From Enterobacter phage NJ2, in sequence record OR822025.1: 39,605 nucleotides of DNA; one strand, 5' to 3'. The position numbers were made by a program, and so were the translations under genes. The notes beneath the pieces are model-generated. The model worked only from the letters and a program-made list of their open reading frames with translations. It was not told the origin of the DNA and did not search any database. Of the stretch, positions 12,496-16,462 are shown one piece after another. Position 1 is the first letter of the stretch, and each line of letters begins with the position of its first letter.

Positions 12496-12499
12496 CACT

Positions 12500-12763
12500 A
12501 TGAGTGATAAATCCCTGATTCACTTCCTTGAGATGTTGGACACTGAGATGGCCCAGCGCATGCTGAAAGACCTTCAGGATGGCGAGAAGCGAACCCCTCA
12601 GTTATACAACGCCATTGGTAAACTACTGGAGCGCCACAAGTTCCAGATTGGTAAGCTTACCCCAGACGAGAACATCCTCGGTGGACTGGCAGATGGACTC
12701 AAGGACTACAACAAGACAGTCGGTAATGACGGTCTGGAGGAAGACGACCTGTATCGTCACTAA
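12500..12763 (+). CDS. gp18: terminase small subunit (gene 18 homolog), 87 aa
   Basis: I chose the internal ATG at 12500 (MSDKSLIHFLEMLDT, matching the T7 gp18 N-terminus as I recall it) with GGAG upstream, rather than the 12467 ATG. Confidence 0.85.
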   Translation: MSDKSLIHFLEMLDTEMAQRMLKDLQDGEKRTPQLYNAIGKLLERHKFQIGKLTPDENILGGLADGLKDYNKTVGNDGLEEDDLYRH

Positions 12764-13308: not shown

Positions 13309-15063
13309 ATGTCGCAAGAAGCTCGTAATGCGGTAATCATCGCACAACTCAAAAGCGACTTCGTGGCGTTCCTGTTCGTTCTCTGGAAGGCGCTGAATCT
13401 ACCAGCTCCGACCAAGTGTCAGATTGACATGGCTAAGTGCCTGGCGAATGGGGACAACAAGAAGTTTATCTTACAGGCTTTCCGAGGTATCGGGAAGTCG
13501 TTCATCACCTGTGCGTTCGTTGTGTGGTCCCTATGGAGAGACCCTCAGCTCAAGATTCTGATTGTGTCAGCATCAAAGGAACGTGCGGACGCTAACTCCA
13601 TCTTCATCAAGAACATCATTGATTTGTTGCCTTTCCTTAGTGAGCTTAAGCCTCGCCCTGGTCAGCGTGACTCTGTGATTAGTTTCGATGTAGGCCCAGC
13701 TAAGCCCGACCACTCCCCGTCAGTTAAGTCTGTGGGTATCACTGGTCAGCTTACGGGTTCTCGTGCGGATATCATTATCGCAGATGACGTGGAGATTCCG
13801 TCTAACAGTGCCACTCAAGGTGCCCGTGAGAAACTGTGGACGCTGGTGCAAGAGTTTGCCGCTCTGCTCAAGCCTCTGCCAACTTCACGCGTAATCTACC
13901 TGGGGACTCCTCAGACCGAGATGACACTCTATAAGGAACTGGAAGATAACCGTGGGTACACCACCATAATCTGGCCAGCCCTGTATCCTCGCAGTAAAGA
14001 GGAGGACATGTACTACGGTGAGCGCTTAGCGCCTATGCTCCGTACTGAGTACATCGAGTTCCCTGAGGGACTCATGGGTCAACCAACAGACCCTGTTCGA
14101 TTCGACATGGACGACCTGCGGGAACGTGAGCTGGAATACGGTAAGGCTGGCTTTACCTTACAGTTCATGCTTAACCCGAACCTGTCTGATGCCGAGAAGT
14201 ACCCTCTGAGGCTCCGTGACGCTATCGTAGCGGCCCTGGACCTTGAGAAGGCACCGATGCACTACCAATGGCTGCCGAACCGTCAGAACCTCATTGAGGA
14301 GCTTCCCAACGTGGGACTCAAGGGTGATGACCTTCACAGCTTCCATTCGTGCTCCCAGAACACCGGACAGTATCAGCAACGCATCCTCGTGATTGACCCA
14401 AGTGGCCGTGGTAAGGATGAGACAGGTTACGCGGTGTTGTTCACCCTGAACGGCTACATCTACCTGATGGAAGCTGGCGGGTTCCGCGATGGTTACTCCG
14501 ACAAGACCCTTGAGGCCCTCGCTAAGAAGGCCAAGCAATGGAAAGTGCAGACTGTGGTCTTTGAGAGTAACTTCGGGGATGGTATGTTTGGTAAGGTGTT
14601 CAGTCCTGTTCTCCTTAAGTATCACCCAGCGTCTATGGAGGAAATCCGAGCGCGAGGTATGAAGGAGCTGCGAATCTGCGACACACTGGAACCTGTCCTG
14701 TCTACTCACCGCCTTGTCATCCGTGATGAAGTGGTCAGAGAGGATTACCAGACTGCCCGTGACTCCGATGGGAAACACGATGTGAAGTACAGCCTGTTCT
14801 ACCAGCTCACCCGTATGACCCGTGAGAAGGGCGCTGTGGCCCACGATGACCGACTTGATGCTCTGGCATTGGGTATCGAATGGCTACGCTCTACGATGGA
14901 GCTGGATGCCGTCAAAGTGGAACACGAGCAACTCCAGGCGTTCCTTGAGGACCATATGGCGAAACCTCTGGTGGGCGGTGAGGCTGCACGGCAGATGACC
15001 TATGGTGGCATCGACATCTACTACGAGGACGAAGGGTCTGGTACCCAATTCATCCAGTGGTAG
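13309..15063 (+). CDS. gp19: terminase large subunit (gene 19 homolog), 584 aa
   Basis: Size (T7 gp19 is 586 aa). A Walker A-like motif (FRGIGKSF) and conserved ATPase/nuclease layout. Synteny. Confidence 0.93.
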
Positions 15064-15143: not shown

Positions 15144-15166
15144 GTTAACGACTCACTATAGGGAGA
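15144..15166 (+). promoter_or_regulatory. phage RNAP class III promoter (phiOR equivalent)
   Basis: GTTAACGACTCACTATAGGGAGA. The +1 G is at 15161. It lies downstream of gene 19 and upstream of 19.5. Confidence 0.88.
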
Positions 15167-15335: not shown

Positions 15336-15485
15336 ATGACTACCTTGCTCATGAAGCTGGCCCGTAGTCGTACCTTCTGGCGGTTTCTTGTTTTACTTGC
15401 TGGTGCCCTCGGTGCTACAGCTATCACTCAAGACCTCAGTGGACTGGAGACTCTCGTCTGCTCTGTACTTACTTGTAGCGATTAA
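15336..15485 (+). CDS. gp19.5: gene 19.5 homolog, 49 aa small membrane protein
   Basis: ATG 15336 with an AAGGAGG RBS gives 49 aa, the same length as T7 gp19.5. It has a hydrophobic core (FWRFLVLLAGALGATAI). It is the last gene before the right end. Confidence 0.7.
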   Translation: MTTLLMKLARSRTFWRFLVLLAGALGATAITQDLSGLETLVCSVLTCSD

Positions 15486-15562
15486 GCTATTGCTCACCCG
15501 ATAGTGCGCCCAGAGGATTCACTTCGGTATGATAAACACCATACCTCGTTCATCCTCTATGT

Positions 15563-15662
15563 CAATCAGTAGGCCCTAAGGTTAACTCCTCAGGGTCTCT
15601 ATTGGTCTACCTAAGGTACAGCGTGCCTAGGGTATTACCTAAGGTGGTTTCCTAAGGAGACC
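15563..15662 (+). repeat. array of CCTAAGG/CCTAGGG short repeats (right-end unique region preceding terminal repeat)
   Basis: CCTAAGG recurs four times (ccctaaggtt, tacctaaggt, tacctaaggtg, tcctaaggag) plus one CCTAGGG variant (cctagggt). This is analogous to the ACCTAAAG repeat arrays flanking the T7 terminal repeats. Confidence 0.6.
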
Positions 15663-15696
15663 CTTTAAGAATATACCACAAAAATCTCTGTAGGTA

Positions 15697-15904
15697 TCTC
15701 ATAGAGTAACGAACCCAAAGTACCCCCCGTAGGCCCTCCATTAGTTCCACCTACGGCACCACTCCCCTGTGGATAACTTTGTGGATAACCTAAGGAGTTC
15801 CTGTGGATAACTCTAGGTGATACCTAAGGGCTGTGGGTAACTCTTAGGGAGACTGTGGGTAACTTTGGGTGAACCTGTGGGTAACTTTGGGTCTGTCTGT
15901 CCCT
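15697..15904 (+). repeat. inferred (collapsed) direct terminal repeat; genome physical ends expected near 15697
   Basis: TCTCATAGAGTAACGAACCCAAAGTACCCCCCGTAGG resembles the T7 left end TCTCACAGTGTACGGACCTAAAGTTCCCCCATAGG. GTCCCTATCTGTTA near 15900 resembles the end of the T7 terminal repeat. The boundaries are approximate and rest on memory of T7. Confidence 0.35.
15768..15884 (+). repeat. six same-orientation DnaA-box-like nonamers: TGTGGATAA at 15768, 15780, 15802 and TGTGGGTAA at 15832, 15854, 15876
   Basis: Read directly from the sequence. The reverse complement TTATCCACA is the perfect DnaA box, and TTACCCACA is one mismatch from it. They sit in 22-nt periodic units CTGTGGRTAACTYTDGG. 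Confidence 0.6.
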
Positions 15905-15909
15905 ATCTG

Positions 15910-16050
15910 TTAGTCACTCCTAAGGTCACCACTTAAGGTCATCACCTAAGGGAGACATCAAGCCATCACTACCTAAGGTTAGCCACCTAAGGGACAGCTC
16001 CTAAGGTGAGACATCCAGTTATCACTGAGACACTCACTCCTAAGGTTCAC
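15910..16050 (+). repeat. second array of CCTAAGG-containing repeats (left-end side, after terminal repeat)
   Basis: cactcctaaggtcacc, cacttaaggtcatcacctaaggg, ctacctaaggttagccacctaaggg, ctcctaaggtg and cactcctaaggttcacc are spaced at ~12-25 nt. T7 has ACCTAAAG repeats at the equivalent place. Confidence 0.6.
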
Positions 16051-16199
16051 CGTTAGCCCTCGTTTAGCAGAGTCTCAGAGCTTAGACTCACAGGTTATCA
16101 CTACTGGCTATCTTTTAGCAGTCTCATTAGCCTTAGAGACGATTCTATCCGGTGAGCCATTAAGATAGCCTCATATCATGGTCATTGTCAACACTCACC

Positions 16200-16222
16200 A
16201 TTAACGACTCACTATAGGGATA
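16200..16222 (+). promoter_or_regulatory. phage RNAP promoter phiOL equivalent (ATTAACGACTCACTATAGGGATA)
   Basis: Consensus from -17 to +3, with GGGATA instead of GGGAGA. It lies left of the early region, as phiOL does in T7. Confidence 0.8.
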
Positions 16223-16330
16223 CTTAAAGGTCTTACTTATAGCCTTACTATTAAGATAATCATTAACCTTAAGTATCACTTTAAGTCTCTCTATAGGAAA
16301 CCCTGAGGTATACTGGATGAATTAACAGTG

Positions 16331-16360
16331 TTGACATTGGGTCTGCCCTATGGCTTAATA
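16331..16360 (+). promoter_or_regulatory. candidate host sigma70 early promoter (A-type): AGTGTTGACA -35 at 16331..16336, weak -10 CTTAAT/TTAATA
   Basis: A perfect TTGACA is embedded in the AGTGTTGACA context, which is shared with the 16463 element. The -10 is poor, so confidence is low. Confidence 0.35.
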
Positions 16361-16462
16361 GCTCTCGTCGACAGGACACAGCGACACCGGGGAGAATACC
16401 TAGAGTTATCCTAGCGGTAGTGACCTGAAGACCAAGTAGCTAGTCAACGGCATACGAAAGTG

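Follow-up and report, generated by a model that had tools for sequence, protein, structure and literature searches.

The terminal repeat of Enterobacter phage NJ2 (sequence record OR822025.1) carries a short array of DnaA-box-like nonamers, and arrays of the same kind recur in the same part of the terminal repeat in several other phage lineages. We studied the 39,605-bp sequence of this phage (in the following the window, i.e., the whole stretch of DNA that was analysed), which is the circularly permuted genome of a T7-like phage (Studiervirinae). Judging from sequence comparison, we consider it about an even call that the nonamers form a functional binding array for host DnaA at the genome end or concatemer junction. 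Their recurrence in unrelated terminal-repeat lineages, with T7 and T3 not among them, suggests that a host protein is used at the ends of phage genomes in a way not described so far.

Results

Six DnaA boxes within 117 bp

The sequence of positions 15760-15890 is ccccTGTGGATAActtTGTGGATAAcctaaggagttccTGTGGATAActctaggtgatacctaagggcTGTGGGTAActcttagggagacTGTGGGTAActttgggtgaaccTGTGGGTAActttggg. The six nonamers found therein are listed below, together with the direct terminal repeat (TR) in which they reside.

15697..15904, plus strand: TR, 208 bp, one collapsed copy corresponding to the concatemer junction; placed by homology to the T7/T3 ends
15768..15776, plus strand: box 1, TGTGGATAA; its reverse complement TTATCCACA is the consensus DnaA box
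15780..15788, plus strand: box 2, TGTGGATAA; separated from box 1 by a 3-bp spacer
15802..15810, plus strand: box 3, TGTGGATAA; from pattern search
15832..15840, plus strand: box 4, TGTGGGTAA (TTACCCACA, one mismatch); from pattern search, Tandem Repeats Finder and a repeat family
15854..15862, plus strand: box 5, TGTGGGTAA; from pattern search, 22-bp period
15876..15884, plus strand: box 6, TGTGGGTAA; 20 bp from the box end to the right TR boundary

A search of both strands of the window for the pattern TGTGGRTAA returned exactly these six sites, all on the plus strand and within 117 bp. That is, the first-pass annotation, which had reported three copies each of TGTGGATAA and TGTGGGTAA on one strand, counted correctly, and the window holds no others. 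As a background model we used dinucleotide-preserving shuffles, for which 0.51 sites per window are expected (maximum 3; a count of 6 was reached in 0/100 shuffles). The enrichment check proposed along with the annotation, i.e., counting the motif elsewhere in the genome, thus comes out in its favour, with all six observed sites in the array.

The boxes share one orientation and are helically phased, with spacings of 12, 22, 30, 22 and 22 bp, which puts them on roughly one face of the helix; such phasing is also known from arrays on which DnaA oligomers assemble. Tandem Repeats Finder reports a 22-bp period for 15831-15892 and the repeat search a family CCTGTGGRTAACTYTD with spacings of 34, 30, 22 and 22, in agreement with the annotated periodic units of about 22 nt. 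Each 22-bp unit consists of a box and a CCTAAGG-like half. The heptamer CCTAAGG itself is also found inside two of the array spacers (15789, 15823).

With regard to the DnaA consensus (TTATNCACA/TTWTNCACA), three boxes of the array match perfectly as TTATCCACA while the other three (TTACCCACA) are off by one base at position 4, such that the nonamers are perfect or one-mismatch DnaA boxes, as had been stated. The strict consensus TTWTNCACA has four sites in the window, and 3/4 are the TGTGGATAA boxes of the array.

Neither a promoter (sigma-70) nor a terminator was found within the array, and no open reading frame of at least 40 amino acids lies across 15486-16405. The inverted repeats of the array are short and imperfect (the best has 17-nt arms at 88%), and in the Rfam scan no family overlaps the array while one chance miRNA match was obtained outside of it. 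A structured RNA at the array was rejected on these two grounds. Direct-repeat sites of IHF, PhoB and ArcA were also considered and rejected as poor matches, judged by eye.

Location within the terminal repeat

The extent of the TR was derived by homology to the ends of T3 (repeat annotated as 1-231) and T7 (1-160). On the left it opens with TCTCATAG (15697), just as T3 and T7 do at their first position, and its right boundary, ...CTGTCCCT followed by ATCTGTT at 15904/15905, matches T7 160/161 and T3 231/232. We also compared the locus with T3, T7 and about 70 related loci, and the boundary sequences conserved among them (TCTCAYAG... on the left, ...TGTCCCT and then ATCTGTT on the right) are present here. 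The repeat furthermore lies between gene 19/19.5 and the leftmost phage promoter with the early genes. The source sequence is assembled and circularly permuted, and it contains a single TR copy since the assembly collapsed both copies.

Within the TR, the array covers positions 72-188, i.e., the right two-thirds, and stops 20 bp short of the right boundary. The homology of both boundaries to the T7/T3 ends therefore supports the annotated location of the array inside the terminal repeat. Given this position, twelve boxes per mature genome (six per concatemer junction) are a fair deduction as well.

Recurrence in other phages

The best match of the large terminase gene gp19 in our phage collection has about 83% nucleotide identity. 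Because the collection thus holds no close relative of the phage, conservation was tested in other lineages only. Same-orientation arrays of TGTGGATAA/TGTGGGTAA were found in the same part of the TR in several T7-like lineages and in a group of Molineuxvirinae:

Escherichia coli/Shigella Berlinvirus phages P483, A7, nasanit and SEqdws-315: TR array present; 6-8 boxes (at most one mismatch) in P483, A7 and nasanit, many spaced 11-12 bp
Enterobacter phage phiEap-1: TR array with 5 perfect boxes
Klebsiella Przondovirus subgroup (cp31, cp32, 5OI88, 140f, phi1_146030, VLCpiA3a, TVB03, K10PH82C1, cmc355D, 175002; the cp31 group): TR array
T7-like metagenomic contig from IMG/VR (L216): TR array
Molineuxvirinae Klebsiella phages ZK1, K22PH164C1 and VLCpiA2a (the ZK1 group): 5-8 boxes (at most one mismatch)

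K61PH164C1 was matched too, at the level of BLAST. The variant TGTGGGTAA is also shared by P483, A7, the cp31 group, ZK1 and L216. For two phages the repeat itself is well defined: in ZK1, an exact repeat of 292 bp, found at either end of the record, contains 8 boxes, and three of the spacers are identical; the 177-bp terminal repeat of A7 was mapped experimentally by run-off sequencing (PMC8427288), and all eight A7 boxes fall within it.

The distance from the end of the last box to the right TR boundary is 18-21 bp in 9/9 box-bearing phages compared, while that from the left TR end to the start of the first box ranges over 31-95 bp in the same phages. Pooled over lineages, spacings of 11-12 bp (7 times) and 20-22 bp (15 times) are observed. 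Only two 9-mers, TGTGGATAA and CTGTGGATA, are common to the TRs of all six lineages. Based on alignments within three groups, substitutions are seen in 14/180 box columns vs. 36/193 spacer columns (Fisher p=0.002), which is a modest test with some ascertainment bias, since the boxes were defined by one reference row.

The cp31 group shows a different layout, namely an inverted pair TTATCCACAgggTTATC(C/A)ACA, spaced by 3 bp, and then 2-4 forward units, such that two boxes are of opposite orientation (TTATCCACAgggTTATCCACA). Because of these inverted copies, it is the 9-mer itself that appears to be kept and not a longer directional repeat unit. Repeats of this group that are otherwise very similar (L205-L207, L222-L227) have 2, 3 or 4 forward units of 22 bp. 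Its second inverted box is either TTATCCACA or TTATCAACA, and the latter is the commonest variant box in T5-like phages.

Scanning IMG/VR for any two boxes was unspecific and gave 120 mixed contigs; the only T7-like one among the clustered matches is A7 itself. Some non-T7-like contigs (L040, L056, L065, L072, L082, L093, L115) hold clusters of 6-7 boxes within 250 bp, in part with the cluster at a contig end (L065 61-174, L115 104-351). Such clusters could be phage origins or further terminal arrays.

Relatives without boxes

The first-pass annotation had asked for a comparison with the terminal repeats of T7 and T3, and boxes are absent from both. More generally, no box within one mismatch was found in the TRs of T7, T3, the KP32-like and most Berlin-like phages. 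In the same slot, short direct repeats phased at about 11 or 22 bp are present in each of the T7-group TRs examined. Respective motifs are CCTTGGGT/CTTTGGGT/CCTTGAGT for T7, CCTAAAG for T3, CTTATGG for Berlin and CCTTAGGTG for KP32. In several box-less relatives (KP32-like, Berlin-like, AP10 and Erwinia L1; L146-L203, L192-L200, L125, L184) we also observe the motif ACTATATGT(T/A)G, with about 13-24 bp left to the end of the repeat. It occupies the slot of the last DnaA box in box-bearing phages and bears a faint likeness to the phage-promoter core CACTATA.

To relate the boxes to the packaging enzymes, we compared the small (gp18) and large (gp19) terminases of box-bearing and box-less Berlin phages. 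Nasanit, which has boxes, shows 100% identity in gp18 and 98.5-99.0% in gp19 to the box-less Berlinvirus loci L199/L200, and for A7 (boxes) vs. L196 (box-less) the values are 98.8% and 99.5%. With enzymes this similar on both sides, the motif does not track the packaging enzymes, and terminase recognition repeats were rejected as the specificity determinant on this ground. Flanked by conserved boundaries on either side, the central part of the TR behaves like a cassette that can be exchanged.

Comparison with bacterial DnaA-box clusters

Box 3 is identical to R4 of the E. coli oriC on the same strand (CTGTGGATAACTCT) over 14/14 nt, and box 1 with its flank (CACTCCCCTGTGGATAAC) agrees with R1 (CACTGCCCTGTGGATAAC) at 17/18 positions. 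We further scanned metagenomes for three CTGTGGRTAAC(T) units with a period of 20-24 bp, which yielded at least 120 contigs. Among the 120 matches listed, 3 have any protein similarity to the window, and in 13 or 14 the end of a dnaA gene is a few hundred bp away. These dnaA-adjacent arrays lie directly downstream of dnaA and are built from the unit CTGTGGATAACT with spacings of 12/21/21/12, followed by an opposed array. Since unit and spacing are shared, the phage arrays copy the architecture of genuine DnaA-box clusters.

Same-orientation CTGTGGATAAC arrays with 10-12 or 20-23 bp spacing are altogether very common in environmental metagenomes (at least 120 contigs, L231-L350; e.g., L264 2114-2300, L333 3664-4080, L241, L250 and L233). 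Many of them sit on short contigs; L250 has five perfect 22-bp units and L233 ten boxes, the last of which is 19 bp from the contig end. Arrays downstream of dnaA that come with an opposed array and an AT-rich stretch are probable chromosomal origins.

The likeness to chromosomal arrays (oriC R1/R4 and dnaA-flanking clusters) thus concerns the 9-mer and its immediate flanks, the same-orientation runs at 11-12 and 21-22 bp and, for the cp31 group, the opposed array as found next to dnaA in metagenomes. In contrast to chromosomal arrays, the phage array has no adjacent AT-rich unwinding element, no GATC and no dnaA/dnaN nearby, and it is sited in the TR of a phage whose group uses its own replication machinery. 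No unwinding element was found beside the boxes, as the GC content of either flank is 0.47-0.58; the closest 40-mer of low GC (27.5%, 15664-15703) is separated from box 1 by 65 bp on the left and falls for the most part outside the TR. This segment (tttaagaatataccacaaaaatct...) adjoins the TR on the left and has counterparts at the same place in P483, phiEap-1 and the cp31 group. GATC (Dam/SeqA) sites are absent from 15400-16400. By these sequence features, the array fails the tests for an oriC-type replication origin.

No similarity was found when the array was compared by blastn with 72,556 plasmids and 5,426 E. coli genomes. As a match, an unwinding element and GATC sites are all lacking, a captured host or plasmid origin was rejected as source. 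A one-off recombination remnant is unlikely too, because the same TR position recurs across lineages with boxes conserved and spacers diverged. The annotated DnaA reading is therefore kept in part: the oriC R1/R4-type flanks and the unit and spacing of dnaA-adjacent arrays speak for it, while the suggested descent from a recombined host or plasmid origin finds no support, given the missing plasmid/E. coli similarity, unwinding element and GATC sites and the recurrence across lineages. A DnaA-like binder encoded by the phage was likewise rejected, as a rough tblastn probe of the window, using an approximate DnaA C-terminal query that did match metagenomic dnaA genes, found no DnaA-like DNA-binding domain.

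Comparison with T5-like and other phages

Positions 15767-15793 (CTGTGGATAACTTTGTGGATAACCTAA), which comprise boxes 1 and 2, are 26-27/27 identical to a box pair in about 126 records of T5-like phages, and several of the listed matches are annotated as left terminal repeat. DnaA-box pairs 3 bp apart have been described in the injection-stop region of 25 T5-like phages and were proposed to bind membrane DnaA (Davison 2020, bioRxiv 10.1101/866236). According to the citation therein, T5 boxes were first reported by Heusterspreute et al. in 1987; a 2026 PNAS paper repeats the description.

In both systems, a virulent enterobacterial phage has consensus and near-consensus boxes in its direct terminal repeat, no replication origin is associated and the function is hypothesised only. 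The 3-bp pairing of the T5 boxes is seen here for boxes 1-2. They differ in layout. T5 has four pairs 5.6-9.4 kb from the end within the large inverted repeats IRC/IRD (10.1101/866236), whereas we observe one array of 22-bp units, all in the same orientation, that covers 72-188 bp as counted from the left end of a 208-bp repeat and leaves 20 bp to its right end. Boxes 1-2 are the only T5-like 3-bp-spaced pair; the other boxes are single and occur at 22-bp spacing in units. Around the array we found no inverted repeats comparable to the large ones of T5 (IRC/IRD, IRD'/IRC'), the best having the 17-nt arms (88%) mentioned above. The variant boxes differ as well (mostly TTATCAACA in T5, TTACCCACA here), although TTATCAACA is present in the cp31 group. 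Finally, the two belong to different phage families with different packaging and entry machinery.

The A7 genome paper maps the repeat without any mention of DnaA (PMC8427288). In the literature we searched, which did not extend to subscription-only papers on T7/T3 pac sites and on SP6/K1-5 genomes, no description of DnaA boxes in T7-like phages or Autographiviridae was found. Having found no prior description, we regard the DnaA-box array as new for T7-like phages and as of a kind already known from T5-like terminal repeats.

With the concatemer-junction repeats of T7, the array shares slot and periodicity, the flanking heptamers being kept as CCTAAGG and one heptamer-like half being part of each unit, while T7 and T3 have no DnaA-box-like 9-mer. 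The IHF site I1 of lambda cosB would be comparable as a host-protein site beside a terminase processing site on the first-packaged side, helpful and not strictly essential. It differs in the host protein, the terminase and the genome ends (cohesive ends vs. direct terminal repeat).

Genomic surroundings

The following features of the window surround the array.

about 12497-12763: small terminase gp18, upstream of the TR
Rz/Rz1: likewise upstream of the TR
13309-15063: large terminase gp19 (gene 19), upstream of the TR
15144..15166, plus strand: phage-polymerase promoter, phiOR-like, ACGACTCACTATAGG at 15148; function taken over from T7
15575..15657, plus strand: CCTAAGG heptamer array, left flank
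15905..15911, plus strand: ATCTGTT, T7 RNA polymerase class II pause signal, directly right of the TR
15919..16045, plus strand: CCTAAGG heptamer array, right flank
16200..16222, plus strand: phiOL-like promoter of the phage polymerase, ATTAACGACTCACTATAGGGATA, with an AT-rich stretch after it

Transcripts from the promoter at 15144-15166 would run rightward across the array up to the pause site. The heptamer ATCTGTT, being the class II pause signal of T7 RNA polymerase at the concatemer junction, is conserved as CCCTATCTGT in most of the Studiervirinae loci L125-L204. Among the Molineuxvirinae, the boundary of the ZK1-group repeat reads TATCTGTCC.

We counted 27 CCTAAGG sites in the window (4.5 expected), with 12 of them at 15575-16045, all on the plus strand. 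The respective flanks of the T7 repeat are CCTAAAG arrays, for which the CCTAAGG arrays are the counterpart; related lineages use other heptamers, e.g., CCTTATG in Berlin. With the phiOL-like promoter, about 315 bp to the right of the array, the region also reaches its highest AT content (16200-16290, GC 0.28-0.30); promoter and AT-rich stretch together have the layout of the promoter-plus-AT-rich replication origins of T7.

A 17-nt inverted repeat (88% complementary) pairs 15691-15707 (TAGGTATCTCATAGAGT) at the left TR boundary with 15810-15826 (ACTCTAGGTGATACCTA), the spacer after box 3. It is probably due to chance and, by eye, is not conserved in P483.

Discussion

A possible role of host DnaA at the concatemer junction

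For the array to act through host DnaA, which we hold to be an even call, the following course would be conceivable. DnaA would bind the strong boxes 1-3 with high affinity and would then spread cooperatively rightward across the weaker TTACCCACA boxes 4-6, resulting in a phased nucleoprotein block. This block would end close to the right TR boundary, which would be the future right genome end, the first DNA to be packaged, the RNA polymerase pause site and the presumed terminase site. The array would thereby shape or mark the DNA beside the processing site, or cap the end. In its most likely role, it would assist the processing of the concatemer junction or the handling of the right end through a host factor, much as IHF does at lambda cosB.

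In T7, the right genome end is packaged first and the cut is made at this boundary. Taking right-end-first packaging over from T7, the array would adjoin the presumed cut site, being 18-21 bp from the right TR boundary in all lineages. Because this distance is the only positional constant across lineages, a role at the junction or right end is favoured, i.e., our analysis leads us to prefer a packaging-side role over roles in entry or titration. Since close relatives with near-identical terminases lack boxes, the comparison presents the array as an optional, swappable module and not as an essential packaging signal.

Several observations weigh against a function through DnaA. No need for DnaA is known in the replication or packaging of the T7 group. 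Since T7, T3, the KP32-like and most Berlin-like phages manage without boxes in this slot, any role must be dispensable. Some periodic motif of about 11 or 22 bp fills the slot in all T7-group TRs, and in an alignment each unit of the Berlin-type array (CTTATGGTAAC...) finds its partner in the box array of A7. Because of this alignment, the boxes could be one variant of a generic periodic element that functions without DnaA. The constant offset of 18-21 bp may be due to nothing but a conserved terminal core, about 20 bp long, which the repeats abut. Half of the array, i.e., the TTACCCACA boxes, deviates at position 4, which is not the position that TTWTNCACA tolerates. The bias of the box-vs-spacer test belongs here, too.

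Other explanations

What these points amount to, if taken together as an explanation of their own, is a lineage-specific form of a generic periodic TR element, which would be bound by a phage protein (gp18 or another) or act via DNA shape, with the likeness to DnaA boxes being incidental. The phased short repeats in the same slot of every T7-group TR examined fit such an element, as does the composite 22-bp unit of a box and a CCTAAGG-like half, and the slot adjoins the presumed right-end cut site on the first-packaged side, where we would expect a cosB/pacB-like site. We nevertheless consider it unlikely. If a phage packaging protein read the motif, gp18 (98.8-100%) and gp19 (98.5-99.5%) should not be that similar between box-bearing and box-less Berlin phages, and the 9-mer with its immediate flanks recurs in the ZK1 group of another subfamily and in T5-like phages, which have different packaging proteins. 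The inverted copies in the cp31 group and the matches to the flanks of both oriC R1 and R4 also disagree with an incidental likeness, and the rough probe found no DnaA-like DNA-binding domain in the window.

The T5-like pair could point to entry. Here, the left TR enters first and DnaA at the membrane would hold, ratchet or protect the leading end, as a counterpart of what has been hypothesised for the T5 injection-stop boxes (10.1101/866236). The identity of 26-27/27 to the T5-like pair, the annotation of such matches as left terminal repeat and the left TR copy, with its boxes at nucleotides 72-188 of the DNA that enters, are consistent with it. We rate an entry role as rather improbable, given that the distance between left end and first box varies (31-95 bp) while that to the right boundary is constant (18-21 bp), that the T5 geometry differs (boxes 5.6-9.4 kb from the end in large inverted repeats), and that T7 and T3, by general knowledge, stop and resume entry without boxes. 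Little credence is given to a DnaA sink like datA, already suggested with the first-pass annotation, for which phage DNA would titrate DnaA and thereby block host initiation or derepress genes such as nrdAB. Multicopy high-affinity consensus boxes on rapidly amplified DNA, 6 at each junction and 12 in each mature genome with hundreds of copies in a cell, would suit a sink, but neither a fixed TR position nor a fixed orientation is needed for it, and T7-group phages are generally known to shut off and degrade the host chromosome anyway. Moreover, the rest of the genome has one further consensus box, and the box number is therefore not maximised. Even scanter is the credence for a product of neutral slippage or unequal recombination, or a captured-origin remnant, that has no function. 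The unit copy number does vary (2-4 forward units in the cp31 group), ZK1 has three identical spacers and relatives do without the array; but boxes are conserved while spacers diverge, position and orientation are the same in six or more lineages, and similarity to plasmids or E. coli genomes, an unwinding element and GATC sites are all absent.

Significance

For replication and packaging without the host initiator, T7 is the textbook case, and we know of no function that has been assigned to the short repeats in and around its TR since the genome was sequenced. Boxes of oriC grade at a fixed distance from the end, together with the T5-like pair, lead to the hypothesis that the slot recruits an array of DNA-binding proteins beside the processing site. 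Because box-bearing and box-less sibling phages with near-identical terminases exist, the question is directly testable: A7, P483 and nasanit vs. their box-less Berlin-type siblings (terminases 99-100% identical) form a natural test system, and their hosts are E. coli and Shigella with full dnaA genetics.

Tentatively, one may go further and regard DnaA as a recurrent, unrecognised host cofactor at phage genome ends, acting in junction processing or packaging initiation, in end protection or bridging, or in entry. Such a generalisation, for which we see possible but limited odds, would span at least five Studiervirinae lineages, one Molineuxvirinae group and the T5-like Demerecviridae, with arrays having been placed in each separately. 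If DnaA is used, a phage group in wide use for therapy and biotechnology would depend on its host in one more, new respect, and this could bear on the packaging signals of T7-type phagemids and on the injection-stop signal of T5. If it is not, the recurrence of the exact motif of a host factor still wants an explanation.

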